From contig CAWENP010000004.1 of assembly GCA_963810495.1 (NCBI GenBank), forward strand, positions 12,860-76,859: a DNA stretch of 64,000 nucleotides, in the 5' to 3' direction. This document shows positions 10,915-42,542 of the stretch, one piece after another; within the stretch, counting starts at the first letter, position 1; each line of letters opens with the position of its first letter. The notes beneath the pieces are model-generated. The model was not told the DNA's origin, did not search any database, and saw only the letters and a program-made list of their open reading frames with translations. The DNA comes from an uncultured delta proteobacterium (GTDB lineage Bacteria; Desulfobacterota; Binatia; Binatales; Binataceae). A program made the translations under genes and the position numbers.

Positions 10915-10934
10915 TCGGCAAAGGGCCGACGACG

Positions 10935-12564: not shown

Positions 12565-13655
12565 ATGCACGCAAGACTGAGTTGGTTCAGGATCCTGGGT
12601 GATCTAGTCCACTTTCTGTGTCTCGGCTTGCGCTCCAGAGCTTCGCTCGCGGCCGAGAATCTGTTCCTGCGCAAGCAGCTGGCATTCTATCAAGAGCGCA
12701 CGGTCAAGCCCCGACGTGCCGACAATCCGACGCGCCTGACTCTGGTACTGCTCAGCCACTGGTTCAATTGGCGCGATGCTTTGACCGTGGTGAGGCCAAG
12801 ACCTTGGTCGCCTGGCAGCGCAAGGGCTTCTGCCTTTTCTGGCGCCGAAAGTCCGAAGCTGGTCGGCGACCGATCCCAGCCGCGCTTCAAGATATGATTC
12901 GACAAATTGCGCGCGAGAACCCCTCGTGGGGCGAGGAGCGGATCGCAAACGAGCTGCTGCTGAAGCTCGGTCTGTGCGTGTCGCCGCGCACAATCCGGAA
13001 GTACATGTCGAAGTTGCCGGGCGCGCCGCGCGGTGGACCTCGGGGCGATCAGCGGTGGGCGGTCTTTCTCAGGAATCACGCCCGGTTGATTATCGCCTGT
13101 GATTTCTGCGTCGTAGTAACCGCTGGGTTCCGAATCCTCTACGTGTTTGTGGTGATGGAGCATGCCTCGCGTCGGTTGATTCACCTCAACGCCACCACCC
13201 ATCCCACCGCCGCCTGGACTCGCCAACAGCTACGAGAAACCATTCCTTTCGACCACCAGTATCGGTTCATCATCCACGACCACGACGCGATCTTTTCCGC
13301 CCAATTGGACGCTTCGCTGACCCGGCTCGGCCTTAAGGTGATCACCACGCCGAGGCGCAGCCCGCAGGCGAACTCACTTTGCGAAAGGCTAATCGGGACC
13401 CTGCGGCGGGAGTGTCTGGATTGGATTATTCCGTTGAGCGAAGGACACCTGAGAAAAATCCCGACGTCGTGGATGGCCCACTACAACCGAGGCAGACCAC
13501 ATTCCTCCTTGGGACCAGGCATTCCCTATCCAAGGTTGGGCGACCCGCAAGTCAAACCCTGCGGACACCACCTTCCGGTCGGTTATCAAGTCGTGGCCAC
13601 ACCGGTCTTAGGCGGACTGCATCACGAATACAGCGTGCAGAGGCTTGCGGCGTGA
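12565..13655 (+). pseudogene. DDE (rve/integrase-core) transposase, IS3/IS481-like, disrupted by a -1 frameshift near 12797
   Basis: The N-terminus (WFRILGDLVHFLCLGLRSRASLAAENLFLRKQLAFYQ...LTLVLLSHWFNWRDALTVVRP) continues in another frame as TLVAWQRKGFCLFWRRKS...HDHDAIFS...RGRPHSSLG (rve domain). The junction reads ccaag where ccaaag would restore the frame. Confidence 0.8.
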
Positions 13656-16307: not shown

Positions 16308-16580
16308 GACCCGCTCTGGACCCAGCGTGCATCGTTAACCATCGCGCTTTCGCAGTCTGGGGCTACGACTCAGTAAGGCGAAGTCCTAACTACCGCGACT
16401 CTCTCAAATCAAGACACGCTGAGACCGCATAGTTGCGCCGAATGAGCTGCGCAACTTCGCAGCCGTGCGTACAGGTCAGCGAAAAACGTGGTATGAAAAG
16501 CGAACCATTTGGCCGCCCGCCTGGGTTTGCAATGCGAACGCCCTGGCGGTTCCGTCCGGGGACATTCGGGAGCGCTAGCG

Positions 16581-18983
16581 ATGGCGGTTGCCAGCCGCGA
16601 GCAAAACCGGGGAGTGGGCGCGTTTATTCTGCGACAGCGCGCGCCTATCGGGATCGTTCTGATCGCGACCACGCTGTTCATGGCGTTTTGGGCGGCGCAC
16701 GTGCCGATCGCGACGCGCTTTGAAGATCTCTTCCCGGCGCGCCATCCTGACACCCTGCTCTATCGCCAGTTCCGCCGCCAATACGGCGGCGCGCAGCAGC
16801 TCGTCCTGATGCTCCGCGTGCGCCAGGGCGACATCTTCAACTTCCACACCCTGCAAGCGATCCAGGACATGACGCGCGAGGTCGACAAGCTATCCGGCGT
16901 CAACCACAATGAGGTTTTCTCACTCGCCTCGTATCGCGTGCTGTATGCGCGCGCCGAACCCGGCGCGCTGGTCTCGGCGCCTTTCATGTATCCCGACGTG
17001 CCGCACACGCAGCAGCAACTCGACGACCTCAAGAGCATCGTGCGCGCCCATCGCCAGCAGTTGGCGGGCCTGGTTGCGCGCGATGAGCGCGGCGCGGTGG
17101 TGATCGCGAGCTTCAACGAGACGGGCTTCGGCTACGGAGCATTGTTCGACGGCGTGCAGCGGATCATTCGCGAGCATGAGGACCGTAACACCCGGATCTA
17201 TGCGAGCGGCGCCGCAATGTTCGCAGCCTGGGGCTATCACTACCTGGCGCGCATCGGGATCACTTTCGCGGTCTCGGCGGCCCTGATGGTGCTCATCACG
17301 TTCCTCGCCCTCGGTCGGCGGACCGGTTGGTGGGCGCCCGTGCTGACCGGCCTCTGTTCGGCGATCTGGGGGCTCGGCTTCGTCGGCCTGATGCGCTTCA
17401 ACTTCGACCCGGTGATGCTGGTGGTACCGTTTATCCTGACCGCGCGTGATCTCAGCCACGGCATTCAGTGGCACGGCCGCTACTACGACGAACTTGACCG
17501 CGGCGACGATAAGCCGCGCGCGTGCGCGGCGACCGCCGACACAATGATGGCGCCGGGCTTGCTCGCCGTGCTCGCCAACGTCGCCGGCATCGTCTTCATC
17601 GCCGCGAGCGACGTTCCGGTGCTCAGGCAGATCGGCGTGGGCGGCGCGGTCTGGCTGGGAGCAAGTCTCGCGATGGTGTTCGTGTTCCAGCCGATCCTGA
17701 TGAGCTACCTGCCGCGCCCGGCGCTGCGCGAGTCGAGCTGGTTTGGCGGCTGGACTGATAGGGGACGATCGCTGGTCGATCGGATGGCCGCGTTTCCCAC
17801 GACTTCCGGCCTCGCGCGCGGCGCGCTGCTCGCCACCGGCACGCTTGTGATGATCGTCGGAGTGGCCGCGGCGCGGCGTGTGCGCGTCGGCTACCTGACG
17901 GTGGGCACGCCGATTTACCGGCCCGACGCCAAGGTCAACCGCGACACGGCCGAGATCGGAAAACTGCTGCCGGTCGACTCCGCTTGGGTGGTCGTCGACA
18001 CGCCCGGTTATCCCAGCCCGCAGTCCGCGGTGGGGATCGAGACGCTGCGGATGTCGGACGACCTGGCGAACTATCTCGTGAAGCGGGGCGACGCGGTCGC
18101 GGTGCTCGGCTTCGGCACGCTGGCGAGCAAGCCGATGAACATGCTGCTGCACTACGGCTACCCGAAGTATTTGGCGCTGCCCAACACCAACCAGCTCAGC
18201 GCCAACCTGTGGGGCTTCTTCTTCGCGGCGGCGGCGCCCGACGAGCCGCAAGCCTACTTCGCCTACGCGCCGGCGATGAACAACACCTGCATCCGCCTGC
18301 TCCTGTCCAACCATACCAGCGCCCGCCTGAGCCGCTTGCGCAACGACCTCGACGTCTTCGTGCGTGAGCGGGTGGCGGCCGACCCCGCGCTCAACCAAAT
18401 AAAGGTGCGCTACCTGGGCGGCGAGGCGGGACTCTACCTTGCCACGGACGATGTGATGGCGCGGCTGAACTGGGTCAACCTCGCCCTGGTGCTCGCCGCG
18501 ATCCTGGTGTGCTGCGCGATCGTGTTTCGCTCGTTGGCCGCCGGGCTGCTGTTCGCGGTGGCGTGCGTGATGGCGAACTTCGGTGCGTTCTTGTATATGA
18601 ACGCGCTCACCATGGGCCTCACCGTCGATACGATCGCGGTTATCTCACTGGGAATCGGACTGGGTATCGACTATGCGATCTACACCGTCGCGCGCATCCG
18701 CGACGAGGTGATCGAGGGGCGCGCGCTGAACGACGCGATAGCTACCGCGTTGCGCACCACCGGCGTATGGGTGTTTGCCACATACGCGGTGATGGTGGGT
18801 GGGATGCTGCCGTGGCTATTCTCGCCCCTGCTCTTCCACAACGAGATGAGCTCGCTGCTGATTTTGCTGATGAGCGCCAATCTGATTGTGGGCCTGTTCA
18901 TCCTGCCCGCGTTCATCGCGTGGCGCCGTTCGAGATTCATCACGCGCTACGAGTCCGCCGCACGCGGCGCCGCCCTGGTGTAG
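16581..18983 (+). CDS. RND-superfamily exporter, MMPL/HpnN-like (paralogue A)
   Basis: About 800 aa with 12 TM helices in a 1+5/1+5 arrangement and two large periplasmic loops. Conserved ILTARDLSHGIQW and GIGLGIDYAIYTVARIRDEV segments. The ATG at 16581 follows an in-frame stop. Confidence 0.85.
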   Translation: MAVASREQNRGVGAFILRQRAPIGIVLIATTLFMAFWAAHVPIATRFEDLFPARHPDTLLYRQFRRQYGGAQQLVLMLRVRQGDIFNFHTLQAIQDMTREVDKLSGVNHNEVFSLASYRVLYARAEPGALVSAPFMYPDVPHTQQQLDDLKSIVRAHRQQLAGLVARDERGAVVIASFNETGFGYGALFDGVQRIIREHEDRNTRIYASGAAMFAAWGYHYLARIGITFAVSAALMVLITFLALGRRTGWWAPVLTGLCSAIWGLGFVGLMRFNFDPVMLVVPFILTARDLSHGIQWHGRYYDELDRGDDKPRACAATADTMMAPGLLAVLANVAGIVFIAASDVPVLRQIGVGGAVWLGASLAMVFVFQPILMSYLPRPALRESSWFGGWTDRGRSLVDRMAAFPTTSGLARGALLATGTLVMIVGVAAARRVRVGYLTVGTPIYRPDAKVNRDTAEIGKLLPVDSAWVVVDTPGYPSPQSAVGIETLRMSDDLANYLVKRGDAVAVLGFGTLASKPMNMLLHYGYPKYLALPNTNQLSANLWGFFFAAAAPDEPQAYFAYAPAMNNTCIRLLLSNHTSARLSRLRNDLDVFVRERVAADPALNQIKVRYLGGEAGLYLATDDVMARLNWVNLALVLAAILVCCAIVFRSLAAGLLFAVACVMANFGAFLYMNALTMGLTVDTIAVISLGIGLGIDYAIYTVARIRDEVIEGRALNDAIATALRTTGVWVFATYAVMVGGMLPWLFSPLLFHNEMSSLLILLMSANLIVGLFILPAFIAWRRSRFITRYESAARGAALV

Positions 18984-20381: not shown

Positions 20382-20727
20382 GTGTCGCCGACACTAGCGA
20401 TGCGGCCCCTCGCCGTCAAAGCCCTGCCTGATGAGCGCCTCGGCCGCCTTCGAACGAACCCCCTCACTATCCGCTTGGGATGCACCGGCGCGCGGCACTG
20501 CTCCTCCAAGAGGCCCGGATAATACACGTCAGATTCCGCCTTGACGCAACTCTGGACGCGCGCCTAGGCTCACCCACTCCAATACTCAGTTCTCTTGCAA
20601 CCGAGCAGTCAACTGTGAGACAAAATCCGGAATAGCCGTAACAAAGATGCCCACAGCCTGTTCTGCTCACTGCCTGACGAGCGACTAGTTGCACGCTGCT
20701 CGTCATGGACTTCAGGGAGGAGGTCCG

Positions 20728-21393
20728 ATGCTGGGAAGAAAAACTCGCTTATCTGTGGTTTGGCTGGCCGCCCTGTCCATGATCTCCGGATGCGCGGGCA
20801 TGAGCGCAAGGGAGCAGTGCATGCTGCTCGGCGCAGGCGCAGGCGTAGTGGTCGGCGGAGGGGTGGCGGCTGGCACGGTCGCAGTCCACGGCAATCGTGA
20901 CCAATTCACCTGGGCCGTTCCCGCAGGCGTGGTAGGCGGCGCCCTCATCGGTGGCTTGGCCGGCTATCTCCTGTGCCCGCCACCACCACCTCCACCACCG
21001 CCTCCTCCACCGCCACCACCTCCGCCTCCTCCGCCACCACCTCCGCCACCACCGGAAAAGATAATCCTGCGTGGCGTTCACTTTGACTTTGACCGGTCAA
21101 ATATCCGTCCGCAGGATGCGGCCGTGCTCGACGAGGCTGCGGAAACTCTGAAGTCGCATCCGAACGTGACGGTCAACGTCAATGGTTACTGCGACGCGAT
21201 CGGCTCGGTCAGGTACAACCTGCGGCTCTCCGAACGCCGGGCCAACGCGGTCGTGAGGTACCTGGCAGACCACGGCGTGGCCGAAGGCCGCATGAGCCCG
21301 CACGGCTATGGGAAGACACACTTCGTCGCGACCAACCGGACGGCGGAAGGACGCGCCCAAAACCGCCGGGTCGAACTGGTGCCGAACCAGTAG
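20728..21393 (+). CDS. OmpA/MotB-domain lipoprotein (Pal-like) with a run of 26 consecutive prolines
   Basis: Lipobox LSMISGC, a Gly-rich segment, then CPPPP...(26 P), then a C-terminal OmpA_C-like domain (NGYCDAIGSVRYNLRLSERRANAV...NRRVEL). GGAGGAGG Shine-Dalgarno 7 nt before the ATG. Confidence 0.85.
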   Translation: MLGRKTRLSVVWLAALSMISGCAGMSAREQCMLLGAGAGVVVGGGVAAGTVAVHGNRDQFTWAVPAGVVGGALIGGLAGYLLCPPPPPPPPPPPPPPPPPPPPPPPPPPEKIILRGVHFDFDRSNIRPQDAAVLDEAAETLKSHPNVTVNVNGYCDAIGSVRYNLRLSERRANAVVRYLADHGVAEGRMSPHGYGKTHFVATNRTAEGRAQNRRVELVPNQ

Positions 21394-21896: not shown

Positions 21897-22070
21897 CTAG
21901 GCGACCTTTCTGAAAGCGGTCGCTTCGTCGTCCTCAGCGAACCGCGTTCCTCCCGGCGAGAGCGGATACCGGCGTACCGGCGTCATACCCCATACGTACC
22001 AGTCCAGCACGGCCAGTACGGCTACGATCACTGCGCCAAGAATCAAAGTAGTGATCGACGGAAGAATCAT
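21897..22070 (-). CDS. 58-aa hydrophobic small protein with a strong Shine-Dalgarno sequence
   Basis: My own translation is MILPSITTLILGAVIVAVLAVLDWYVWGMTPVRRYPLSPGGTRFAEDDEATAFRKVA. AGGGGAGGAG lies 6 nt upstream. It is absent from the ORF track because it is under 60 aa. Confidence 0.3.
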   Translation of the reverse strand: MILPSITTLILGAVIVAVLAVLDWYVWGMTPVRRYPLSPGGTRFAEDDEATAFRKVA

Positions 22071-22503
22071 CTTCGGCTCCTCCCCTCTGCGAAGTCCCCT
22101 GCTCTGAGGCTGCGGGCTTCGGGTAAAAAAACGGTAACAACATCTCTTAAGACCTTTTGTTCAATGGATGCGTGAAATCACGCTCGGGAGGAGTTACAGC
22201 ATCCATCGTGCCATCGACAGCAGACCTTGCGTGATCGCGAAAGGTCGGATTTTTCGACTGAATATAAGGGCTACGCAGCCTTGCTCATGCAGCCCGGCCC
22301 ATGGGAACCTTTGCGAAACGCGAATCAGACGCGAAATGGGAAGCGTCATACAGCGAACGCCTGGCGTTCGAAACTGATACGTTGCTGCAGTCCCTCTACT
22401 ATGCCGATCAGCTATTGCGATTTGGGTCACAAGCTCGTATTGGTTGCTTAAGTTCAAGTTGAGCAAGCTGAACGCGCCGATTCAGCCGGAGAGGAGGGAG
22501 CCA

Positions 22504-25434: not shown

Positions 25435-25733
25435 CGTGACCCACGACCGCGGTGCCGCTGGGTTGCGCCGCGCTGCTGGCGGCTTGTCGCGTGGTGACTT
25501 CCAGTGAAGTCCGCCAATTTATCGCATCAATGGCCGGTTGACATCGCAGTCGATTCCGGAGTAGACCGGCTTACTGAGTTGATTTCATGCGCTTTTGTGC
25601 GCATTGCGAGCAGGAGTTCCGGGGGGAAGGATTGAACGGCTAACTAACTAGAAGTGAACGGCTGATTAAACTTCATCGCAGTGCTCGCATCCCGTAGGCT
25701 GCGGAGCACGATGAGGCGGGACTCTCCAAGGCT

Positions 25734-26741
25734 ATGCGTGTGCGAAGAGGAGCGTTCTGGGCGCTAGCGGGCGCCGTGGCGGGGGTGGCTGTGATAGCCG
25801 GCACCCTTGTGTCCAGCGCCGCGATAAGCGGCAGCACCGTCAGCGGCGCGCATCCGTGGCAAGCGCTTTACGGCGTTGCGATTCGCCCCGACGGCAGCAT
25901 CTACATCGTTGGCTCGAAGGGTCTGCTGATGGTCTCGGATGACCATGGCAAGAGCTGGAACGAGCAGGTCCTCCACGAGCGCGACGGCAACGTCCTCTTC
26001 CAAGACCGCGACCTGTACGCGATTCAGTTCACGCCCGACGGCAAGAGCGGCTGGATTGCAGGCGAGATGGGGATCGTCCTGCACTCCGACGACAGCGGCA
26101 AGACCTGGACGCGCCAGCAGACCGGGATCGCGAGCAACCTGTTCAATGTCTCCGCGGTCGATGCGCAACACGCGTACGCGTGCGGTGCGGAGGGAGTGCT
26201 GCTCAGCACCGTCGACGGCGGACAGCACTGGAATGTCTACAAGTATAAAGAGCCGATAATTTTTTTCGATGTCCACTATACCGACCCCAACAGCGGCTGG
26301 ATGGTGGGCGAGTTCGAGACGATCCTCCACACCACTGACGGCGGCAAGACCTGGAACGTCAGTCACGGTGGCAACACCAGCGACTTTACGATCGGCCCCA
26401 GTTTCTCGATCGTCTTCACCGATCTCCAGCATGCTCTGGTTACTGGGCTAAACGGCGAGGTCCTGATCACTGAGGACAGCGGCAAGACCTGGAAGGCCCT
26501 GAAGCTGCCGGAGCCCCTGGCGACTTACACGGCGGCCGTGGCGGGAGGGCGGGTTTGGCTGGGCGGTGAAGGCGGGCGGCTGGTCGGAATGGATGCGGCC
26601 GGCAAATGGGCGGTTCATCGGCCTACCTTCAACGACATCGCTGCCGTGGCGTTCCTGGGCAACGTGGGCTACGCGGTCGGCCTTAACGGACTGATCCTGC
26701 GGACGGACAACGCGGGTGAGCAATGGCAGGTGGTAAAGTAA
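25734..26741 (+). CDS. Periplasmic BNR/Asp-box repeat beta-propeller (Ycf48-like)
   Basis: Signal/anchor segment, then six S-x-D-x-G-K-T/S-W repeats (DDHGKSWNE, SDDSGKTWTRQ, TVDGGQHWN, TTDGGKTWNV, TEDSGKTWKAL, TDNAGEQWQV). Overlaps the start of RND paralogue C by 19 nt. Confidence 0.8.
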   Translation: MRVRRGAFWALAGAVAGVAVIAGTLVSSAAISGSTVSGAHPWQALYGVAIRPDGSIYIVGSKGLLMVSDDHGKSWNEQVLHERDGNVLFQDRDLYAIQFTPDGKSGWIAGEMGIVLHSDDSGKTWTRQQTGIASNLFNVSAVDAQHAYACGAEGVLLSTVDGGQHWNVYKYKEPIIFFDVHYTDPNSGWMVGEFETILHTTDGGKTWNVSHGGNTSDFTIGPSFSIVFTDLQHALVTGLNGEVLITEDSGKTWKALKLPEPLATYTAAVAGGRVWLGGEGGRLVGMDAAGKWAVHRPTFNDIAAVAFLGNVGYAVGLNGLILRTDNAGEQWQVVK

Positions 26742-29167
26742 GAAAAGAGCAGGCCGTCGGCCCGATCGGCGTATTCGTCCTTCGCTTCCGCGCACCGATC
26801 GGCATCGTGTTGCTGCTCTTCAGTGCCTTCATGGGGTACGAATGTACCCGGGTCCGCATCGCCACGGACTTCGCCGAATTCTTTCCCCGCACGCATCCGA
26901 ACGTTCAGCTCTACGAAAACTGGAAAAGGTACGGCGGCGCTCAGACCCTGGCCATGATGGTCCAGGTCAAGCAAGGCGACATTTTCAACTTTGATACCCT
27001 GCGGCGGATCCAGGGCATCCAGCGCGACATCGACAAGCTGCCCGGCGTGGACCACAACGAGGTCCTCTCGCTGGCCTCTTACCGGGTGAGCTACGCAGAG
27101 GCGGCGCCAGGCTCGCTCACCATCAAGCCCTTCATGTTCCCCGACGTGCCCACCACGCAGGAGGACCTCGAGGAGCTTAAGCGCCACGTTTTCTCCAACC
27201 GCGCCCGCATCGCGCACCTGGTTAGCGCTGACAACAAGAGCGCGCTGGTGATGGCCTCATTCAACGAGCGGGGGCTCGACTACCGCGAGCTGTTCAACGA
27301 CATCCAGGAGATCGTCAGGAAGTACCAGAATGAAAACAACCAGATCTTCGTAGCCGGCGAGCCGATCATCCGCGGCTTCGGCTACTACTACGAACACCTG
27401 ATAGACCTCCTGTTTCTGGCTGCGGTCGCGACGATGATCGCCATCTTGTACCTCACGCTCGGCCAGCGAACGCGATGGTGGGCGCCGATCGTCACCGGCG
27501 CGCTGTCGGCCGTCTGGGGCCTCGGGTTCGTTGGATTGATGGGCTACAACTTCGACCCCGTGATGCTGGTCATCCCGTTCATCCTTACCGCGCGCGACAT
27601 GAGCCACGGCATCCAGTGGCAGGGCCGCTTCCACGACGAGCTCGACCGGCTCGGCGACAAGTACGCGGCCTGCGAGGCGACCACCGACTTCATGCTGCCA
27701 CCCGGCTTGCTGTCTATTCTGGCCGACGTAGCCGGCATCATCTTCATCTCCTTCGGCGGCATCCCGGTCCTGCAGCATATCGCGCTGGCCGGCTCGGTGT
27801 GGCTCGCCGGCAGTTTGACGATGGTCTTCATCTTCCAGCCGATCTTCGTCAGCTACCTGCCTGTTCCCAAGATTAAAGAGAAGAAGCGAGTCGGCGCCGA
27901 GCCGGGAGGGCTCAAGACGGCCAAGACTTTCGTCGACTGGCTGGTCCACATACCGGTCACGCCGGGACCGGCACGGACTGGTCTGCTGGTCTTCGCTCTG
28001 TGCTTCCTGGCTGCCGGCATTGTCGCCAGCATTCGCCAGGACATCGGCTACAAGACGCCAGGCACGCCGCTCTACCGGTCCAACGCCAAGGTCAATCGGG
28101 ACATCGTCGCAATCGGCAAGAAGTTCCCGCTCGAGGAGGGGTGGGTCATCCTGACCACGCCGGTGGGCAAGGAGGCGGCGGCTGGCCAAACAGTGCTGGC
28201 GCCGCGAGTGCTCAGGATGGTTGACGACATGCGCTCGTACCTGCTCCAGGATCCCCGTGTCGCCGTGGTCGTCTCCTTTTCGTCGACCATTTCATATCCG
28301 CTCAACCAGATGTTCCACTATGGCCATCCCAAGTACCTCGCGGACCCCGACTCGATCCGGCTATCGGGAAATCTCTGGTTCCTTTATCTCAATGGATCGG
28401 CGCCGGGAGAGCTGGAGCGCTTCATCTCCGACCGCTCCAATCACGACACCTGTATTCGTATCCTGTTGCGCGACCATACCTACGACACGCTCAACGGCCT
28501 GCGGGACCGGATTAGTCAGTTCGTTAACGAGCGGGTTAAGAACGACCACGAATTGGCGAATGTGCACGTGTGGTATTTGGCAGGCCTGGCGGGACTGTAC
28601 CAGGCCGCGAATGACGTTCTGTATCAACTGGATTTTCTCAATATCACTTTTGTGCTCACCGTGGTGTTTCTGTTCTGCGTGATCTCCTTCCGTTCCTTTG
28701 TGGCCGGATGCATGTTCCTGTTCTCCTGCGTTCTCGCCAACTTCGGCGCTTTTATATATATGGGGTTACGTGGTATTGGTCTGACGATCGACACGATACC
28801 GGTGATTTCGCTGGGTATCGGCCTGGGCGTGGACTACGGAATTTATACCGTGTCGCGTATCCGGGACGAGGTGATGGGCGGGATGGCGGTGGAAGATGCA
28901 ATCGTGCTGGCTTTGAAGACCACTGGTCTAGCCGTCTTCAGCACGTTCATGGTTATGATCGGCGGAATCTTTCCCTGGATTTTTTCACCATTGCTGTTCC
29001 ATAACGAGATGAGCACGCTGCTCATCTTTCTGATGGCGTGCAACATGGTTGCGGGCGTGCTGATTCTGCCGTGCTATCTGCAGATCGCGCGGCCCAGGTT
29101 CATGTTTGGGCGTGGCCAGGCGCCAAAGTCGGAGAACGGACAAAAGGATGTCGTCGCGGCATTTTAG
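26723..29167 (+). CDS. RND-superfamily exporter, MMPL/HpnN-like (paralogue C), in an operon with the BNR, DUF1302 and DUF1329 genes
   Basis: 814 aa with the same architecture as paralogues A and B; second repeat GIGLGVDYGIYTVSRIRDEV. Confidence 0.85.
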   Translation: MAGGKVRKEQAVGPIGVFVLRFRAPIGIVLLLFSAFMGYECTRVRIATDFAEFFPRTHPNVQLYENWKRYGGAQTLAMMVQVKQGDIFNFDTLRRIQGIQRDIDKLPGVDHNEVLSLASYRVSYAEAAPGSLTIKPFMFPDVPTTQEDLEELKRHVFSNRARIAHLVSADNKSALVMASFNERGLDYRELFNDIQEIVRKYQNENNQIFVAGEPIIRGFGYYYEHLIDLLFLAAVATMIAILYLTLGQRTRWWAPIVTGALSAVWGLGFVGLMGYNFDPVMLVIPFILTARDMSHGIQWQGRFHDELDRLGDKYAACEATTDFMLPPGLLSILADVAGIIFISFGGIPVLQHIALAGSVWLAGSLTMVFIFQPIFVSYLPVPKIKEKKRVGAEPGGLKTAKTFVDWLVHIPVTPGPARTGLLVFALCFLAAGIVASIRQDIGYKTPGTPLYRSNAKVNRDIVAIGKKFPLEEGWVILTTPVGKEAAAGQTVLAPRVLRMVDDMRSYLLQDPRVAVVVSFSSTISYPLNQMFHYGHPKYLADPDSIRLSGNLWFLYLNGSAPGELERFISDRSNHDTCIRILLRDHTYDTLNGLRDRISQFVNERVKNDHELANVHVWYLAGLAGLYQAANDVLYQLDFLNITFVLTVVFLFCVISFRSFVAGCMFLFSCVLANFGAFIYMGLRGIGLTIDTIPVISLGIGLGVDYGIYTVSRIRDEVMGGMAVEDAIVLALKTTGLAVFSTFMVMIGGIFPWIFSPLLFHNEMSTLLIFLMACNMVAGVLILPCYLQIARPRFMFGRGQAPKSENGQKDVVAAF

Positions 29168-29254
29168 GCGCGAATAGGTTTGGGTCTTGGGGAAGAAGGA
29201 GTGTTGATGATCCGCAAAATGTCTGGTTAGCAACCAACTCTTGGGGAGGCCTCT

Positions 29255-31141
29255 ATGGGGACTATGGGGACCGAATTTGGTTCGCGGACATGGTGGCAGA
29301 CTGCGCTCAGATTGGCGGCCGCGTTTGCCTTGGTGATGGCGGTGCTCAGTATCTGCGCTGCATCTTCGCGGGCGCAGGACTCGTCGGCTAAGGCGCCGAC
29401 GCAGATTAATGGCGGGCCGCCGATGGCAGATGTCCTGGCCCAGACGAACCCTCCGAGCCAGCCCGAAAGGAGCATCTGGAAGGATTTCCATCTCTCGGGA
29501 TTTCTCAATGAGACCGACGGGATGTGGATTAACCCATCCAATCTCAAGCAGTACACGCCGAGTCGCAATAGTCTGGCCACGGCGCGCACCTGGCTGCAGG
29601 CGGACGAGAACTTCCACCTTGGCGCAAATAACGACTTCTTCATGCGCGAATGGTTCGTGTACGAGCCGCCGTATGCATTTGACAGCTCCAACGACAGGTT
29701 CAGTGCGGCCGGCAGTCCGGGCATGGGGACAATGAACGACTTCTACAATCAGTACACCGTGCGCGACGCATGGTGGAAGCTGACGGCCGGGCCGCTGACG
29801 CTGTATACGGGCAATCAAATCGTGGTGTGGGGTCAGTCGCTGGCCTTCCGCGTGGGCGACGTTATCAACCCGGTAGACACCAACTGGAACTTCGGCTTTG
29901 CCAACCTGGAGCAGTCACGCATCCCGCAATGGATGCTCCATCCGATTCTTAACCTTCCTGACTTGGGTCCGCTGACTTCGAATTTCGTGGAAGGGGTGCT
30001 GATCCCCGGGGCGCAACCAATTTGGAACAGCTGCAATCATCCTGACGGCCGCTACTACCCATCCGGCGACGACGGCTCAGAGTGTAATACGGCGGGCCGG
30101 GTGAACAATGGCTTCCCGGGCGCCAACCACGCGCCGAGCGCCCGCTTCGACGCGCACTACACCAACTTCGCCAGTCCGGGGCGAGAACTCTCTACCAACG
30201 GGTTCCCGTATCCGGAGAATCCCAATGGCGGGAACATACTCGGTTGGCCGCTGCCGCGCGTCTTCTACTTCTGTTCACAGCTCCAAGGCCTATTCGCAGC
30301 GACCCATCAAAAGAACCCCGTAGCGGCCAACCGACAGAGGTTGTGTAACCTGACGGGTGGCCCGGTCATCATCGGCCAGTGGCACGTACCGGCGGTGCAG
30401 TGGAAGAACATGGAAGAGGGCCTGCGCTTTCACACGCTGATCGGCGGCAACGAGATCACGGCGCTCTACTTCAACAGCTTCCAATACTACCCGATCATTA
30501 CGTGGTCGCCTTTCAGCAATCAGTTCCCCGCGGTCTTCGAACCGGTGCAGTACGGGGGTGTGACGATAGACCGGCCGATTCCGGTGCCGCCGAGCCTGGG
30601 CGAGTACCTTCCGCTTGTGGCCCGCGCCGAAGCGGTTTATCAGAACCACGCGCCATTTGGCACCTGGAGCACCAGCGGGACCAACCCGGTCAAGTACTCA
30701 GATATCATGACGTGGATGGTGGCCTTCGACCTCGACAACGCTTACTCGCCGTGGCTTACCACGACCGGTAACCTGTTCGCCAATCTCGAGTTCCTCGACC
30801 AGATAAACATGGACACCAGCAACGACATGATTGATGGGCCGAACGGCGCGCTGGTCAACGAGGCCGTGCAAAAGAACGACATCAGTATGTTGTTGAATAT
30901 CTCGACGTCGTACTGGTGGAACGCGGTCGTGCCGACCTGGACGATGATCTACTCGCTCAAGGGGACGTCTTTCGCGTTCTTCCCTTCCATCCAGTTTAAC
31001 CCGCCGTGGACCAACAAGTACTTTGCCAGAATCGGCCTCATCTACGTGATGGGCTCGGATATGAACTACGTCGGCGTGCCGTTGTTCAAGGGTCAGAACA
31101 TGCTCAATATCACCGCCCAGTACAACTTCAGCGCCTTGTAG
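29255..31141 (+). CDS. DUF1302-family outer-membrane protein
   Basis: Signal peptide, about 600 aa of aromatic-rich beta-strand character, and the family-typical LYTGNQIVVWGQSLAFRVGDVINPVD segment recalled from memory. GGGGAGG Shine-Dalgarno. Confidence 0.7.
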   Translation: MGTMGTEFGSRTWWQTALRLAAAFALVMAVLSICAASSRAQDSSAKAPTQINGGPPMADVLAQTNPPSQPERSIWKDFHLSGFLNETDGMWINPSNLKQYTPSRNSLATARTWLQADENFHLGANNDFFMREWFVYEPPYAFDSSNDRFSAAGSPGMGTMNDFYNQYTVRDAWWKLTAGPLTLYTGNQIVVWGQSLAFRVGDVINPVDTNWNFGFANLEQSRIPQWMLHPILNLPDLGPLTSNFVEGVLIPGAQPIWNSCNHPDGRYYPSGDDGSECNTAGRVNNGFPGANHAPSARFDAHYTNFASPGRELSTNGFPYPENPNGGNILGWPLPRVFYFCSQLQGLFAATHQKNPVAANRQRLCNLTGGPVIIGQWHVPAVQWKNMEEGLRFHTLIGGNEITALYFNSFQYYPIITWSPFSNQFPAVFEPVQYGGVTIDRPIPVPPSLGEYLPLVARAEAVYQNHAPFGTWSTSGTNPVKYSDIMTWMVAFDLDNAYSPWLTTTGNLFANLEFLDQINMDTSNDMIDGPNGALVNEAVQKNDISMLLNISTSYWWNAVVPTWTMIYSLKGTSFAFFPSIQFNPPWTNKYFARIGLIYVMGSDMNYVGVPLFKGQNMLNITAQYNFSAL

Positions 31142-31313
31142 GAGGGAACAAAACCTGAGGTTCGGACGGTTAACAGGGTTGGAGCATCGTTTGAGTGCTC
31201 AATTCGTAAAGGTTATGCTCCTGATAGTGTCCGAGTCCTGACGCTTCAGGTCTTGGGGGACCAGATGCGGTTAATGGCTGGATATTTTGGCCGAACAATC
31301 GGGGACCGGCGAG

Positions 31314-31355
31314 CGCCGGGCGCGCCGCGTTTGCGGCGCGCCCGGCGTTTGTGTT
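31314..31355 (+). terminator. Rho-independent terminator or attenuator between the DUF1302 and DUF1329 genes
   Basis: Perfect 15-bp stem CGCCGGGCGCGCCGC / GCGGCGCGCCCGGCG with a 4-nt loop, followed by TTTGTGTT...TTTTT. Confidence 0.7.
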
Positions 31356-31406
31356 AGTGGCGTTTTTAGGTTCCCGCAAAGCATTACGGTAAGGAGGGAA
31401 AGAAGC

Positions 31407-32726
31407 ATGAGCGCGGCACGTAAGCTGCTAATCGGACTGCTGGGCCTGCTCTTGTGTCCCCTGGCGTTGGGTGCCGCACAGGCGGCGGAGGACACTATCC
31501 CGCCCGGCACCAAGATCACTATGCAGAACTGGCAGCAGTACAAGGCCTTCATGCCCGACGGCATGGTAGCGCTGTTTTCCGGCCAGTATGCGTGGAAGAT
31601 GCCGGACGATGTCGAGATGGATGTGGGTCCCACCACGATCCATCCGTTGCCGAAGCCATTCTGGGATGCGGTGGAAAAATATTCCGCGCAGACGCGCCTG
31701 GTGAAGCTGCCCAACGGCGCGTACAACATCGAGAACTACGTCGCCGGTGTGCCGTTCCCGCATCCCGAAGGTGCCGACAAGGGCACCGAAATCGCGGACG
31801 ACGTGACGTTCCGCCCCGGTGGTGTCCTCTACACCGGTTTCCCTGACCTGCAGGGCAACGAGGAATCATCCTTCTGCACGGTGGACCGCTTCGGCAGCAA
31901 GGCCTGCACGCGGGTCGACTACGACTACCGTCAGCTCGCCTACATCTGGTTCCCCGGCCTCCCGCACCTGGATCCTCATGCCGCCGGAGCATGGTATGGC
32001 GAATGGCTGATGGTGGAAGTGCCCGAGGAGTCCAAGTACACGGCCGACCTGACCCTCTTCTGGCAGGACGTGACGCGCAATCCTGACGACTTCGTCTTCA
32101 TCCCCGCGCTACGCCGTTCGCTGCGGCTTTCGACCTCGGCGCGCTGCGCGCCGCTGTTTGGCAGCGACATGACGCACGACGACCAGCGGGTGGGATGGAA
32201 CGGCGGGGCCTCGGTGTTCGAGGGCACCTATTTGCGCGACCAGAAAATCCTGGCCCTGGTCGACATGACTCACGAGGACGGCAAGTTCCCCGATAACTAC
32301 GACATGCCTCTGGGATGGGCGCGGCCGTCGTGGGGTCAATGGGAGGTCGTCCCGGTGTGGGTAACCGATGTCGAGCGGATTCCCTCGATGCGGCCCGGCT
32401 ACTGCTACGGCAAGCGCATCATGTACACCACGCAGGCGTACTATGCCAATGTCCATCTCGACCTGTACGACGCTAATTCGAAGCTCTGGAAAGTCGTCAA
32501 TATCGGGCTTAGCCCGGCCGTCGACAGATTACACCCCGAGTGGGGCAAGCAGTATTTCGGTGGAATCATCGAGCAGTACTGGGATCTCCAGAATCAGCAC
32601 GCGAGTCACGTGTTTACCGCCGATCGCGAGGGTAATGATCTCACGCCCGACATCGGCTTTGGCACGACCTACGACAACGTCTCGAGATACCAGAGTCCCA
32701 GTGGTCTGATGCAGTTGATGCGTTAA
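31407..32726 (+). CDS. DUF1329-family periplasmic protein
   Basis: AAGGAGGG Shine-Dalgarno, then ATG at 31407. Signal peptide, then ITMQNWQQYKAFMPDGMVALFSGQY ... NYVAGVPFPHPEG, matching the DUF1329 pattern I recall. The track ORF starts upstream at a TTG. Confidence 0.7.
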   Translation: MSAARKLLIGLLGLLLCPLALGAAQAAEDTIPPGTKITMQNWQQYKAFMPDGMVALFSGQYAWKMPDDVEMDVGPTTIHPLPKPFWDAVEKYSAQTRLVKLPNGAYNIENYVAGVPFPHPEGADKGTEIADDVTFRPGGVLYTGFPDLQGNEESSFCTVDRFGSKACTRVDYDYRQLAYIWFPGLPHLDPHAAGAWYGEWLMVEVPEESKYTADLTLFWQDVTRNPDDFVFIPALRRSLRLSTSARCAPLFGSDMTHDDQRVGWNGGASVFEGTYLRDQKILALVDMTHEDGKFPDNYDMPLGWARPSWGQWEVVPVWVTDVERIPSMRPGYCYGKRIMYTTQAYYANVHLDLYDANSKLWKVVNIGLSPAVDRLHPEWGKQYFGGIIEQYWDLQNQHASHVFTADREGNDLTPDIGFGTTYDNVSRYQSPSGLMQLMR

Positions 32727-32750
32727 TGCACATACACGCCTGGTAACCTG

Positions 32751-32790
32751 GCCGGGCGCGGCGCACCGTACCGCCGCGCCCGGCTTTTTT
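32751..32790 (+). terminator. Rho-independent terminator after the DUF1329 gene
   Basis: GCCGGGCGCGGCG-loop-CGCCGCGCCCGGC followed by TTTTTT. Confidence 0.75.
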
Positions 32791-32919
32791 GCGTACCCAG
32801 CGCGACGCTGACCTGGAAGTGAAAGTCGTCGCCCAAGTCCGTCGCCCAAGTTCGTCGGACAGCAATTCAAGGAGACTCAGGTTCAGATCGGCCGCACTTG
32901 GCCGTCGGGGACATGCGCG

Positions 32920-34228
32920 ATGATTCATTTCTCGGGCCGCGTTCGGGTCCTGCTGCTGTTCGGTGCGGCGACCTGCGCGTTAGCGGCGCTCGCGATGGCC
33001 GAGTCGACGCCGTCTCCATACCAATTGATCGACGCCCACTTTGCGATGACCGTTACCTTGCTCGCCAATGGCGAGGTGCTGATCGTGGGTGGCGGCGACA
33101 ATCATGTCTTCGGCGACCAATCTCGCGGAAATTTACAATCCCGCGACCGATGCCTTCACGCCGGCGGGCAGCGGCCTGATGCCCATCGAGCGCACATATC
33201 ATACGGCGACCCTGCTCAAGGACGGCCGGGTGCTGATCGCGGGCGGGATGAATCGCATGGGCAAGGCGCTCGACAGCGCAATCCTATTCGATCCCGAAAG
33301 CGGCAAGTTCATCCCAACTGGCAGCATGGCCGAGCCGCGTTACGCCGCCGCCGCCACGCTGCTGCCTGACGGTCGCATCCTCATCAGCGGCGGCGCCTCG
33401 ACCTCGGAGGGCTACGCGGGCGCCAACCAGGAGAAGCAAGAGGAACAATCGCTTGACACTGCAGAACTCTACGACCCCGGGACCGGCAAGTTCTCGCCCG
33501 CAGGCAAGATCGAGCGCGTCTACGACCTCACCAGCAACAAAATCATGATGCGTGCGAGCATGACCACGGCGCGCCGCGAGCATAGCGCGACCCTGATCAC
33601 GGCCGGCCCGCTAAGCGGGCGGGTGCTGATTGCGGGCGGGATCGGCGACAAGAACAAGCCGATCGCAAGCGCCGAGTTGTACGACCCGGCAACCAACACC
33701 TTCAAGGCCACCGGCGACATGACGGTCGCGCGCACCTATCAGGGCGCCACCGCGCTGCGTGACGGGCGGGTGTTTATCGCCGGCGGCACCGACGCCAGCG
33801 ATCAGGCTCTCGCCACCGCCGAACTCTATGATCCCGCCATCGGCAAGTTTGCGCTCACTCCGGACCCCATGCAGCACGCGCGCTACCGCCAGGTCGCAGT
33901 CCTGCTCCCTGACGGCGACGTGTTGCTGGCGGGAGGAGCGAGCAACGCGGGCGTGCTGGCAAACGCCGAGATTTTCGATCCGCGGACCGGCAAGTTTCGG
34001 CCCACGGGACTGATGAAGGACTACCGGATGGCGGCGGGCGCAGTGCTGCTGCATAACGGCACTGTCTTTATCGCGGGCGGGTACAACAATCGCCCGACGT
34101 ACGCGCCAGGCGCACTCAGCATGGGTTCGACGTCGGTATCGTTCAGGGTGCTCAACACGGCCGAAATCTATAACCCGATGAACGGACAGTTCGTCGACAC
34201 GCGCTCGCTCGGACACGGCCCCGGCTAG
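32920..34228 (+). CDS. Secreted Kelch-repeat beta-propeller protein (galactose-oxidase-like fold) with an apparent frameshift near 33100
   Basis: Signal peptide and the first blade (LLANGEVLIVGGGD) are in frame 1. Six further blades (LLKDGRVLIAGG, LLPDGRILISGG, LRDGRVFIAGG, LLPDGDVLLAGG, LLHNGTVFIAGG) are in frame 2, beginning at SSATNLAEIYNPATDAF. Confidence 0.65.
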
Positions 34229-39685: not shown

Positions 39686-40039
39686 GGCGCGTCCGTCTTA
39701 GAATGGGACCTACCTGGTTTAGACTTGGACCGCCGCGTCGCGTGAAAGGGAGCCTCCGAAGGAAACCATTCCAGCGCTGCGCGACGATTACCCGGAGTTT
39801 TGAACACCCTAAGCCTGTCGCTCAGCCGCCCGACTAACACCTTCCGGAACCTGTCACGCAGGCCAACGGGCCTGGTGGTGTTTGTCTGACACGGGGAGCC
39901 ACAGCAGGCTAAAAGCTAACACAGAATGATATTGCTTAACAAGGGCCAGATTGTCATAATTAAGCTATCCCGCAGGATATAGGGCCGCAGTACGCGGCAT
40001 CGGCGTGTACGCCGCCGGCCGCCACCGCGGACAGCGCAA

Positions 40040-40250
40040 GGCGACGCCGCTATGGACGCACAGAGGTCGGACGCCACTCTTCAGAAGGGCAGATAGACGC
40101 GACCGGCGTGTGGTGCGGGGAATCCTCGGCCGAGTGCGTCACGCTCATCCCGACGCGACGCGCTCGAGAGTGCACTACCCTATGCCTGCAGGGCGGCGGG
40201 CTGATCGAACGCGGCATCTGGCGAGCCTGCCGCAATTACCAGGTGCTGAT
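40040..40250 (+). pseudogene. Degraded, internally deleted copy of the lipoprotein gene at 34287-34832
   Basis: Nucleotide-level similarity to 34420-34500 and 34770-34830, including TGCCTGCAGGGCGGCGGGCTGATCGAACGCGGCATCTGGCG, with the middle roughly 240 bp missing. Confidence 0.6.
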
Positions 40251-40258
40251 TACGGAAA

Positions 40259-41434
40259 TCAGACAGACAGACCGTAGACGCGGCGGACATTGTCGCCCAA
40301 GACGTCGCGCCGGCGCTGCGGGTCGGCTATCTTCGCGCCGAATTTCTCCAGCTCCTCGATATAGTTGCCGGTATGGTCGGGATGCGGGAAGTCGGTCGCC
40401 CAGAAAAAGCGATCGCTGCCGCACAGATCGACCATCGCGGGCAGTGATTTTTCGTCCGGATCGGCGGACACCCAGACGTTGCGCCTGAAATAGAAGCTTG
40501 GCTTTTCCTTGAGCGGAACGCCGCGTCCCATGACGCTGTCGTAGACCGCGTCCATCCGGTCGAGCCAGTATTGAATCCATCCGGCTCCGACTTCAAGAAT
40601 CACGATCTTGAGCTTCGGGAACTTGTCAAAGGTGCCATATTGCATGAAACTCGCGAGCGCATGGCGGATCGCGTCGGACGCGGTGACGTTGAGGAACCAA
40701 TGCTGCTTGCGCACATACTCCTTGTCGTAACGGCCCGGCCAGCACCATTGCGGCTCGAGTGAGACATGGATGCCGAGCGGAACGTCGAGTTCCTGCGCTT
40801 TGGCGAAAAGCACGTTGTTGTCGGTATGCGCGTGGGGCTTGCGATTCATCGTGAACTGCACGACCCATCCGCCCTTGTGGCCAGCCTTGACGGCGCGTTC
40901 GAGCTCGTCGGCGGCGGCCTTCGGATCACCCAATGACAAGTGCGCCACCGGAATCAGACGTCCGCCACTATCCGTACACCAATCGGCAATCCAGCGGTTG
41001 TATGCCCGACACATCGCCTGCGCATAGTCCACGTCGTCGCACTCGGTTTCCCAGGTCAGCTCGAGGCTTGGGTAAATGATGGCGGCGTCGAGGCCCTCGA
41101 GATCGAGTCGCTCGATACGCTCCTTAGCGTCGGCGGCGCCGAGCGGAAGCCGCTCGCCATATTTTATCCGCGGATCGAACTCACCTTTTTCACGGGTCAC
41201 CTGGCCCATCTGTGCAACCGCGCCGAAGTTGCCGCCCCGGCTGACGCGCGAGGGCACACCGTTGATTTCGAGATACTCAAGTCCGTCCTTGTCTTGCTTC
41301 ATGCGGACCGCATTAGCCCGGTACTTGGCCTCGCAGTACTCCTCCCAGCATTTGACCGATTCCAAGATGTGACCGTCGGCGTCGACGGCGCCAGGGTATT
41401 TAAGCTTGTGAATTTTCTCTTCGACTCGTGCCAT
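40259..41434 (-). CDS. Amidohydrolase-2 family metal-dependent hydrolase/decarboxylase (ACMSD/LigW-like)
   Basis: DADGHILE near the N-terminus and a TDFPHPD signature near the C-terminus. Confidence 0.75.
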   Translation of the reverse strand: MARVEEKIHKLKYPGAVDADGHILESVKCWEEYCEAKYRANAVRMKQDKDGLEYLEINGVPSRVSRGGNFGAVAQMGQVTREKGEFDPRIKYGERLPLGAADAKERIERLDLEGLDAAIIYPSLELTWETECDDVDYAQAMCRAYNRWIADWCTDSGGRLIPVAHLSLGDPKAAADELERAVKAGHKGGWVVQFTMNRKPHAHTDNNVLFAKAQELDVPLGIHVSLEPQWCWPGRYDKEYVRKQHWFLNVTASDAIRHALASFMQYGTFDKFPKLKIVILEVGAGWIQYWLDRMDAVYDSVMGRGVPLKEKPSFYFRRNVWVSADPDEKSLPAMVDLCGSDRFFWATDFPHPDHTGNYIEELEKFGAKIADPQRRRDVLGDNVRRVYGLSV

Positions 41435-41567
41435 TTTAGCCTGCCTCGCTTCGATTTGAACTTTCGTAAGCTGGCCATCCCGAGTATTACAGGCCGGGCA
41501 AGCGCGTCAAGGTTTGATGATGTCCCGGTTCATTTCGATGTTTCGATTGAGCCAAGACGACGCAAGA

Positions 41568-42542
41568 TCAAACCGTGCCCAGCCTTAGGATTTGCCGTGC
41601 GTTCTTCTCGTAGATCATCTCGCGTTCGGACGCGGTCAGCCCGAGCCCGTCGATGAACTCGATGGTCCATTCCATGAATCGAGTGCTACGGACGAAGTAG
41701 TCGCTGCCAAAGACAATGTGCTCGAGGCCAACCAGCTCGCGCGCGCAATTGAACGCGCCGCGGTTCCATCCCAGCGCTGTGTCGACGTATAGCTTGCGCA
41801 TCCACTCGCTCGGTCGCCGCGCAGGTTGCTTGTATCCGGGGAAGAACCCCGGCACGTCGAAAACGAGGTCGGTCCGCCGCGCCAGAAACGGCAGCGTGCC
41901 GCCCAGGTGCGCCAGGACCAGGATGATATCAGGGAAGCGCTCGTAGAGCCCGCCGCAGATCAGCCGGTAGGCGGAGAGCGTGGTATCGAAGGGAAACGAG
42001 AGCAGCGGCCCCGGTTGATCGTCGCGATAGCAGGGCGAGTTGGAGGGATGCATGAACACCGGCACGCCCCGCCGGTTGGCTTCCTCCCAAAATGGGTAGT
42101 ATTCGGCGGAGTCGAGATAGCGCCCGCCGATATTCGACGTGACCAGTACGCCCACGAAACCGAGTTCATCCAGCGCACGCCTCATCTCCTCGAGCGCGAG
42201 CTTCATGTTGTTGAAGGGCAGATGGGCGAACCCTCTGAAGCGCTGCGGGTCGCGGCGGCAGGCGGCCGCGATCGCGTCGTTCACCAGCCGGCACAACTCG
42301 GGTGCATGCTCGTCTACGCGGCTGTAAACCGGTGGACAGGACAAGATCTCGATATCGATGCCGGCGCGGTCGATGTCGGCAAGCCGTCCGGCGTGGTCCC
42401 ACGCCGGCAGAGTCGTACCGGCCCATGTGGCGAGCAATCTCCTCTGCTCGTCCTGTCCCAGCTCAATTGCGTCGGGGTAGAAGTGTTTCGCCGCGCGAAA
42501 AAATCCGCCCGGGAAGGCATGACAATGGAAATCAATTTTCAT
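41568..42542 (-). CDS. Amidohydrolase-2 family metal-dependent hydrolase/decarboxylase
   Basis: MKIDFHCHAFPGGFF N-terminal metal-binding motif, SNIGGRYLD, and a C-terminal FGSDYF. Confidence 0.75.
   Translation of the reverse strand: MKIDFHCHAFPGGFFRAAKHFYPDAIELGQDEQRRLLATWAGTTLPAWDHAGRLADIDRAGIDIEILSCPPVYSRVDEHAPELCRLVNDAIAAACRRDPQRFRGFAHLPFNNMKLALEEMRRALDELGFVGVLVTSNIGGRYLDSAEYYPFWEEANRRGVPVFMHPSNSPCYRDDQPGPLLSFPFDTTLSAYRLICGGLYERFPDIILVLAHLGGTLPFLARRTDLVFDVPGFFPGYKQPARRPSEWMRKLYVDTALGWNRGAFNCARELVGLEHIVFGSDYFVRSTRFMEWTIEFIDGLGLTASEREMIYEKNARQILRLGTV

Follow-up and report, generated by a model that had tools for sequence, protein, structure and literature searches.

Layout and products of the cassette

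The window considered here, a stretch of 64,000 nucleotides (nt) from an uncultured soil bacterium of the Binataceae (contig CAWENP010000004.1 of assembly GCA_963810495.1, positions 12,860 to 76,859), carries at 25734-32790 four long open reading frames (ORFs) that lie head to tail on the plus strand and all have a high third-position GC content. A sequence-only reading of this locus had proposed a module made of a periplasmic beta-propeller, an RND/MMPL exporter with 12 transmembrane helices (TMs), an outer-membrane beta-barrel-like DUF1302 protein and a periplasmic DUF1329 protein, with a 19-nt overlap of the first two genes, a strong hairpin after the DUF1302 gene and a textbook terminator after the DUF1329 gene. 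The ORFs and the Pfam searches (PF06980, PF07044, PF03176 and the BNR/Ycf48 models), in which all four proteins scored above the gathering thresholds (GA), agree with this description, and of the four gene coordinates only the start of the DUF1329 gene has to be revised (see below). Judging from its sequence, the module is the Binataceae copy of the AmeABCD-type DUF1302/DUF1329/BNR/HAE3-RND four-component system. Indeed, the features that characterise this family are all present, namely an MMPL/HAE3 pump, an adjoining upstream BNR gene, a DUF1302 gene and a DUF1329 gene, conserved together.

The propeller matches PSII_BNR (PF14870; 115.9 bits, E = 2.8e-33, GA 27) as well as the BNR and Sortilin-Vps10 models, and scores 121 bits against the NCBIfam Ycf48 model NF010237, under the cut-off of 326. 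According to hydropathy, N-terminal signal sequences are present on all three accessory proteins (BNR, DUF1302 and DUF1329). The overlap of 19 nt is delimited by the ATG of the pump gene (26723) and the end of the propeller stop codon (26741).

The pump matches MMPL (PF03176; 51.5 bits, 9.6e-14, GA 20.5), and its top NCBIfam model is the HAE3 model TIGR00921 (118.8 bits, 1.8e-34, under the subfamily cut-off of 351.9). Its hydropathy fits the 12-helix layout of RND proteins (TM1, a loop of ~180 aa, TM2-6, TM7, a loop of ~190 aa, TM8-12). The residues D292 (TM4, in the motif TARDMSHG) and D704-Y705 (TM10) do not vary among 14 paralogues and orthologues, and the TM10 motif GLGVDYGIY, which holds D704-Y705, aligns with both D-Y motifs of MmpL3. 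The D-Y pairs of MmpL3 constitute its proton relay. As these residues are invariant and TM10 aligns with the MmpL3 motifs, the pump looks active, a prediction made from the relay residues. The match to MmpL3/4/5 is remote (E about 1e-7) and confined to TM10-12. Two other identities were considered and rejected: (i) the hopanoid transporter HpnN, whose model TIGR03480 has an equivalog cut-off of 751.85, gave no match for the module pump at E <= 0.01 and only 20.9 and 26.5 bits, respectively, for the paralogues RND2 and RND1 encoded upstream, and (ii) a tripartite HAE1 pump of the AcrAB-TolC type, as ACR_tran reached only 14.8 bits (GA 28). No match to a membrane-fusion protein or TolC family was found among the cassette genes and the scanned flanking genes.

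The third product matches PF06980 (33.4 bits, 3.3e-8, GA 23.2) over model positions 4-212 of 541, i.e. the N-terminal 40%, and about half of its close homologues have a precomputed PF06980 match. An AlphaFold2 (AF2) model, computed from an input alignment of 30 sequences, is of medium confidence (pLDDT 62, pTM 0.61) and depicts a large barrel of about 18-20 strands, in which residues 251-371 form a poorly modelled insertion that holds two invariant cysteines. The best Foldseek neighbours of this model in the PDB were MOMP, general porins, OccAB1/3 and AlgE; OccAB and AlgE have also been reported as structural neighbours of DUF1302 in Pseudomonas (PMC13499233).

The fourth product matches PF07044 (75.5 bits, 6.3e-21, GA 23.1) and LolA_like (4.5e-7). 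Its gene almost certainly starts at the ATG at 31407 and not at the TTG at 31287, since a Shine-Dalgarno sequence (TAAGGAGGG) precedes this ATG and the gene call at the near-identical locus L001 (described below) has 439 aa. The AF2 model of the protein is good (pLDDT 81, pTM 0.85), and Foldseek aligned it with LolA3 of P. gingivalis (9tp6, TMt 0.77), 3bk5, 4z48 (TMt 0.73), which is a DUF1329 crystal structure, and 3buu. On this model, the protein is thus predicted to be a LolA-like half-barrel in its C-terminal part, extended by about 130-190 aa at the N-terminus.

Conservation, transcription signals and variant arrangements

Relatives were collected by a scan with the barrel alignment, in which each species was represented by one genome and which yielded 65 loci, nearly all in Binataceae-type metagenome-assembled genomes (MAGs); L001, on a contig of GCA_049581525.1 that is near-identical to the window and encodes an identical DUF1329 protein, was added from an exact-sequence look-up. 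The closest named homologues of the barrel, of the DUF1329 protein (hereafter the carrier) and of the propeller are proteins of 'Candidatus Binataceae bacterium' MAGs, and NCBI taxonomy puts the Binataceae in the phylum Candidatus Binatota. The host is therefore not a proteobacterium, and the framing of the module as one conserved in Proteobacteria does not suit this copy.

The whole cassette is present in five loci (L001 and L003-L006). The L001 proteins are 99-100% identical to those of the window, and those of L003-L006 share 74-90% (BNR), 88-93% (RND), 76-89% (DUF1302) and 86-96% (DUF1329) identity with them. In all five loci the genes follow the same order, i.e. those for a 129-aa secreted protein, the BNR propeller, the RND pump, the DUF1302 barrel, the DUF1329 carrier, a Kelch propeller and a 181-aa lipoprotein. 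In the window, L001, L003 and L004, the small gene and the BNR gene are separated by the gene for an additional pump, RND2, which in L005 and L006 is found downstream and on the other strand. RND2 thus does not belong to the fixed unit, and the synteny of the cassette survives the rearrangement that moved its gene. The 19-nt overlap of the BNR and RND genes recurs in eight cassettes (five orthologous and three paralogous). However, it is a conserved ..A-TGG (Gln-Trp) of the propeller's last Asp-box that supplies the ATG of the pump gene, and the conservation of the overlap could thus be partly protein-driven.

A more distant locus, L072 (identities of 41% for BNR, 55% for RND, 34% for DUF1329 and 36% for the barrel, a barrel type with no Pfam match on record), has the order DUF1329-BNR-RND-barrel. 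This cassette (6575-13358) lies directly upstream of methylamine dehydrogenase (mau) genes, and L073 and L074 share both this gene order and this context. The conservation of the neighbourhood that was to be expected of a true module is thus borne out, both by the synteny of the five MAG loci and by the reordered set of four genes in L072. Together with the published order DUF1302-DUF1329-BNR-RND of the Ame and Sama sets (PMC6394551; 10.1101/072470), at least three gene orders exist through which, as far as gene content tells, the four families stay together, BNR and RND always as a pair.

A promoter-like site (TTGACA-18 nt-TAGACC) is located in the 299-nt gap between the RND2 and BNR genes. 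The TTGACA element (25538-25543) and the TA.AC of the second box are invariant in all five orthologous loci, whichever gene lies upstream (RND2 or the 129-aa gene), which suggests that the cassette has its own promoter, a putative sigma-70-like box. The site escaped the consensus scan because of its weak -10 element. A partly conserved palindrome, ATGCGCTTTTGTGCGCAT, follows the promoter-like box within 25538-25610 and is a candidate operator; its RNA fold is no more stable than those of shuffled sequences (z = 0.05).

The spacer of 265 nt between the DUF1302 and DUF1329 genes contains a GC-rich hairpin (-47.3 kcal/mol, z = -4.97 against shuffled sequence), placed 168 nt past the DUF1302 stop codon and 55 nt ahead of the DUF1329 start. 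It is retained with wobble changes in L003 and L004, the two closest loci, and not in L005 and L006, without informative covariation, and may act as a partial terminator, a 3' stabiliser or a processing site. Terminator scanning and folding gave no other terminator in the cassette before 32750, where a stem of 14 pairs (13 G-C) with an 8-nt loop and T6 forms the intrinsic terminator (-33.7 kcal/mol, z = -4.0). The common strand, the gene overlap, the lack of a further terminator and the promoter-like box are indirect hints that the four genes may be expressed together. A scan of 14000-36500 against Rfam at E <= 0.1 gave no match, which sets the hairpin and the 5' leader apart from known RNAs. 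Repeats resembling repetitive extragenic palindromes were also considered: GCCGGGCGCG stems gave 10 matches in the window against 4.4 expected, a count reached by 1 of 100 shuffles, which was not regarded as significant.

The same MAGs contain about 55 further DUF1302-like loci for which the surrounding 10 kb include neither RND nor BNR nor DUF1329 genes. The recurrent contexts of these orphan genes are (i) a divergent BNR gene and a formyltransferase gene on the opposite strand, then genes for an alpha/beta-hydrolase and a phosphodiesterase, and (ii) a position between type II secretion E/F genes, an enoyl-CoA hydratase gene and hisG. DUF1329 paralogues elsewhere are solitary or form tandem triplets after ctaA-ctaB, and one to three DUF1329 genes follow ctaA-ctaB in other Binataceae (L068, L070). 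The DUF1302 and DUF1329 families thus show a large, mostly unlinked expansion in the Binataceae. Variant cassettes are also found: BNR-RND-DUF1302 with two DUF3108-like lipoprotein genes replacing DUF1329 (L011, L022-L024 and L080), BNR-RND followed by a DUF3108-like gene without a barrel (L079), and BNR with a barrel gene but without a pump (L078). Because unlinked paralogues and partial cassettes exist, the four proteins are not obligate partners. The DUF3108-like lipoproteins were examined as possible relatives of DUF1329, but no relationship was detected (hhalign probability 0.4%). A divergently transcribed polysaccharide deacetylase gene usually lies upstream of the variant cassettes with DUF3108-like genes (L011, L022-L024, L079 and L080).

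Genes flanking the cassette

The coordinates of the cassette, of its signals and of the neighbouring genes are given in Table 1.

Table 1. Features of the cassette and of its surroundings (positions in the window)
Feature	Coordinates	Strand	Remarks
Ycf48/BNR-like beta-propeller, periplasmic, 335 aa	25734-26741	+	PF14870; N-terminal signal or anchor sequence
Inner-membrane RND pump, MMPL/HAE3-like, 814 aa	26723-29167	+	PF03176; TIGR00921 best NCBIfam model
Putative outer-membrane beta-barrel, divergent DUF1302, 628 aa, signal peptide	29255-31141	+	PF06980 partial; AF2 model
LolA-like periplasmic DUF1329 protein, 439 aa, signal peptide	31407-32726	+	PF07044, LolA_like, AF2 model
Promoter-like site TTGACA-18 nt-TAGACC	25538-25567	+	~170 nt upstream of the BNR start
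GC-rich hairpin, 20-pair stem	31309-31352	+	In the DUF1302/DUF1329 spacer; followed by an interrupted U-tract
Intrinsic terminator after DUF1329	32750-32791	+	Stem-loop 32750-32785, then T6
RND1, MMPL/HAE3-like pump	16509-18983	+	50% identical to the module pump
Small secreted protein, about 129 aa	22504-22893	+	Conserved upstream neighbour in five loci; module membership uncertain
RND2, 813 aa	22993-25434	+	58% identical to the module pump; position varies among related MAGs
Secreted Kelch beta-propeller gene, frameshifted	32920-34228	+	Kelch Pfam matches; after DUF1329 in five loci
Lipoprotein-like protein, 181 aa	34287-34832	+	Lipobox LLQAC; after the Kelch gene in five loci
Second DUF1329 protein	45190-46422	-	48% identical; inside a 756-aa ORF (45187-47457)

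RND1 and RND2 are encoded within 10 kb upstream of the cassette, neither with its own BNR gene, and the three RND paralogues of the window are 50-58% identical to one another. RND1 and the PNP_UDP_1 protein encoded upstream of it were considered as HpnN and HpnG and rejected, as both score far under the equivalog cut-offs. The 129-aa secreted protein has no Pfam or NCBIfam match, and family scans gave no match for the 181-aa lipoprotein. A stretch at 39985-40239 (+) shows 37-70% similarity over 30-75 aa to the gene for this lipoprotein and may be a remnant.

The Kelch gene carries a 1-nt insertion at 33107 relative to L001, where it is a single ORF of 435 aa; the frameshift reflects either a pseudogene or an assembly error. 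A gene for a pyridine-nucleotide-disulphide oxidoreductase (58901-60308, minus strand) is likewise split into two overlapping ORFs, and the two split genes together suggest indel errors in the assembly. The 756-aa ORF that contains the second DUF1329 sequence on the minus strand matches Bactofilin at its N-terminus and represents either two genes in one ORF or a fusion.

Elsewhere in the window, an IS481/IS3-like transposase gene (12618-13655, +) directly follows the gene for heme O synthase (UbiA/CtaB, 11388-12296), and an OmpA-domain lipoprotein (20689-21393, +) has a linker of 28 consecutive prolines between its N-terminal region and the OmpA domain. Between the gene for a 131-aa lipoprotein and that for the small secreted protein, a stretch of about 550 nt (21900-22440) contains no convincing ORF and no Rfam match.

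The sequence-only reading had further placed the module close to aromatic-catabolism genes, which does not hold. Indeed, the Amidohydro_2 genes (40259-42542, minus strand) are 7.5 kb downstream, beyond the genes for the Kelch protein, the lipoprotein, TadE/TadG-like pilins and a Crp-family regulator; the distance is about 24 kb for the thiolase gene (56336-57538) and about 29 kb for the intradiol dioxygenase gene (61991-63037), which lies beside a CoA-transferase gene. A functional link between the cassette and aromatic catabolism is therefore not supported, in view of these distances (7.5-29 kb), the other strand and the intervening genes.

Relationship to known systems and possible function

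The description of such modules as functionally uncharacterised is outdated, since deletion, RB-TnSeq (transposon sequencing with random barcodes), proteomics and AlphaFold-Multimer data have been published on them. The system is known and partly characterised, and what is new here is a Binatota copy with a different gene order. In Castellaniella defragrans, AmeA (DUF1302), AmeB (DUF1329, LolA-like), AmeC (COG4447, Ycf48-like) and AmeD (HAE3 RND) show induction on alpha-phellandrene. Growth on monoterpene hydrocarbons is poor both in a transposon mutant of ameB and after deletion of ameABCD, and the deletion strain is also less tolerant of these compounds and builds up more Nile Red (PMC6394551). 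By its description, the AmeABCD set of C. defragrans 65Phen has the same four families on one strand, a pump with 12 transmembrane segments and three signal peptides (PMC6394551). It differs from the window cassette in its order (DUF1302-DUF1329-BNR-RND against BNR-RND-DUF1302-DUF1329), in its host (Betaproteobacteria against Binatota) and in its position inside a monoterpene-catabolic island, whereas the conserved block of the window has no catabolic neighbours.

The same four families, with BNR and RND adjacent, are found in Sama_1588-1591 of Shewanella amazonensis and in PP_0765/PP_0766 with PP_2018/PP_2019 of Pseudomonas putida. Cofitness of the four genes was observed in Shewanella, in Kangiella and in several strains of Pseudomonas, for which the export of a cell-wall component was proposed, and the RB-TnSeq phenotypes reported for such sets are pleiotropic (10.1101/072470). 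P. putida needs both pairs to grow on Tween 20 and butyl stearate (10.1101/2020.07.04.188060). Two complexes, of barrel with carrier and of carrier, propeller and pump, have been proposed for these sets (10.1101/072470; 10.1101/2020.07.04.188060; PMC10866462): AlphaFold co-folding predicted both the barrel-carrier complex and a DUF1329-BNR-RND trimer (PMC10866462), and a study of 2026 described an 18-strand barrel and a DUF1302-DUF1329 ipTM of 0.84 (PMC13499233). In Pseudomonas the pairs lie at separate loci and the DUF1302/DUF1329 genes are under a LuxR-type regulator, whereas no regulator adjoins the cassette of the window. Furthermore, preparations of outer-membrane vesicles (nanopods) of Delftia contained DUF1302 and DUF1329 proteins (PMC3110197), and a 'Nanopod' cluster (porin, DUF1329, Ycf48, MMPL) is highly expressed, according to proteomics, in the anaerobic benzene degrader ORM2a of the Desulfobacterota (PMC13101534). 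Like the window, ORM2a has porin-like, DUF1329, Ycf48-related and MMPL genes clustered outside the Proteobacteria, but a universal stress protein gene and a hypothetical gene separate the two pairs, and gene order and context differ.

The lipid-exporting pumps HpnN and MmpL3/4/5 share with the window pump the MMPL Pfam match, an architecture of 12 TMs and two periplasmic loops of medium size, and the aligned GxGxDYxxY motif. However, the pump scores far under the cut-offs of the HpnN and MmpL3 NCBIfam models, the similarity being remote, and HpnN is described as having no dedicated partner in the periplasm or the outer membrane (PMC6394551). The Lol pathway (LolCDE-LolA-LolB) and LolA3 (PMC13103446) would share its logic with the cassette, i.e. 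an inner-membrane engine, a carrier with a hydrophobic groove and an outer-membrane acceptor, yet the predicted engine of the window is an RND pump driven by the proton-motive force and its acceptor a large barrel, while Lol uses an ABC transporter and LolB. This likeness is an analogy and does not indicate family membership.

The earlier idea of an envelope-spanning transporter of hydrophobic molecules is supported by the families, by the folds and by the published phenotypes. The cassette probably encodes a Binataceae member of a four-component system that relays hydrophobic cargo from the inner to the outer membrane, most likely outward. We infer the contacts, the direction and the cargo as follows. 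The RND pump, driven by the proton-motive force via D292 and D704-Y705, would extract a molecule of hydrophobic or amphiphilic nature from the inner membrane or from that membrane's outer leaflet. The BNR propeller could sit on the periplasmic face of the pump as a docking or assembly partner, kept in a fixed ratio to it by the 19-nt overlap. The soluble LolA-like DUF1329 protein would then accept the cargo in its hydrophobic groove and carry it across the periplasm to the DUF1302 barrel, which may insert it into the outer membrane or let it pass through; outward transport is the most likely direction. As to the cargo, there is a weak leaning towards an endogenous envelope lipid or a general clearance of hydrophobic molecules over one specific xenobiotic, because the conserved block holds no catabolic or regulatory genes, has envelope and secreted-protein neighbours and is preceded by a sigma-70-like box.

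Several observations weigh against this outward relay. The identity of the DUF1302 protein rests on a partial Pfam match and on a model of medium confidence (pLDDT 62). Most DUF1302 and DUF1329 paralogues of the Binataceae do not lie beside an RND or BNR gene, and variant cassettes lack DUF1329, DUF1302 or RND. In view of the 265-nt spacer and its very stable hairpin, DUF1329 may or may not be co-transcribed with the first three genes. Finally, the growth phenotype of P. putida on fatty esters would, by analogy, suit uptake as well as export.

The system could alternatively be a dedicated efflux machine for solvents or xenobiotics, as proposed for AmeABCD, by which a hydrocarbon-using Binatota cell expels toxic terpenes, aromatics or alkanes that enter its membranes by partitioning. 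The phenotype of the Ame deletion and the Nile Red data (PMC6394551) agree with such a role, as do the strong expression that benzene degraders show of the homologous 'Nanopod' cluster (PMC13101534) and the alkane degradation that one study reports as encoded in Binatota genomes (PMC8262859). However, the block conserved in five MAGs contains neither hydrocarbon-catabolic genes nor a LuxR, AraC or TetR regulator, the nearest catabolic genes are 7.5-29 kb off on the other strand, and the pleiotropy of the RB-TnSeq phenotypes elsewhere (10.1101/072470) also argues against a dedicated role, which is regarded as rather unlikely, though the strongest of the alternatives. The reverse direction, an uptake of hydrophobic nutrients in which DUF1302 would be a FadL- or Occ-like entry channel and DUF1329 would ferry the substrate inward to BNR-RND, appears improbable. 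The most similar characterised bacterial RND pumps, HpnN (PMC6394551) and MmpL3/4/5, export, the conserved D and D-Y relay suits a proton antiporter, and the Ame mutant holds more dye, not less (PMC6394551). These points outweigh the need of P. putida for the genes on Tween 20 and butyl stearate (10.1101/2020.07.04.188060), the occurrence of DUF1302/DUF1329 genes within clusters for the catabolism of phenol, phenanthrene and steroids (PMC7012976; 10.1101/072470), the resemblance of the barrel model to the substrate channels OccAB and AlgE, and the one class of Binataceae DUF1302 paralogues that adjoins alpha/beta-hydrolase and phosphodiesterase genes.

It would also be conceivable that BNR-RND and DUF1302-DUF1329 are independent units that are merely adjacent, the hairpin and the long spacers marking separate transcription units. 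This would be in line with the separate loci of the two pairs in P. stutzeri and P. putida (10.1101/072470; 10.1101/2020.07.04.188060), with the lack of linkage to RND and BNR in most DUF1302 and DUF1329 genes of the Binataceae, and with the 265-nt spacer and its hairpin of -47.3 kcal/mol in the window. Yet the split pairs are still cofit (10.1101/072470), the four genes occur together under at least three gene orders (window, L072 and Ame/Sama; PMC6394551) and published multimer models tie DUF1329 to both pairs (PMC10866462), which makes two unrelated units very improbable.

The DUF1302/DUF1329/BNR/RND system is widespread and has strong fitness phenotypes, and the cassette described here extends it into the uncultured phylum Binatota. 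With an uncultured host and a locus that offers no hint of the cargo, this copy makes the mechanistic question no easier to test. The further gene order of the window and a fourth one, in a related locus, support the view of BNR-RND as a fixed core, with the barrel and the carrier as mobile partners, and the window copy reveals a lineage-specific expansion of barrels and carriers. The most interesting lead is the mix-and-match of the four families in the Binataceae. Indeed, a few BNR-RND engines are found with DUF1302 and DUF1329, with DUF1302 and DUF3108-like lipoproteins, or with DUF3108-like lipoproteins alone, and several orphan DUF1302 barrels and tandem DUF1329 carriers accompany them in each genome. 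It is tentatively proposed, as a possibility that is still doubtful, that the four families form a kit and not a fixed machine, with one pump shared as a hub by many carriers and barrels, each specific for its substrate. If this is true, the hub system would amount to a network for the traffic of hydrophobic molecules in general, and this in a phylum known for its hydrocarbon and methylotrophic metabolism.

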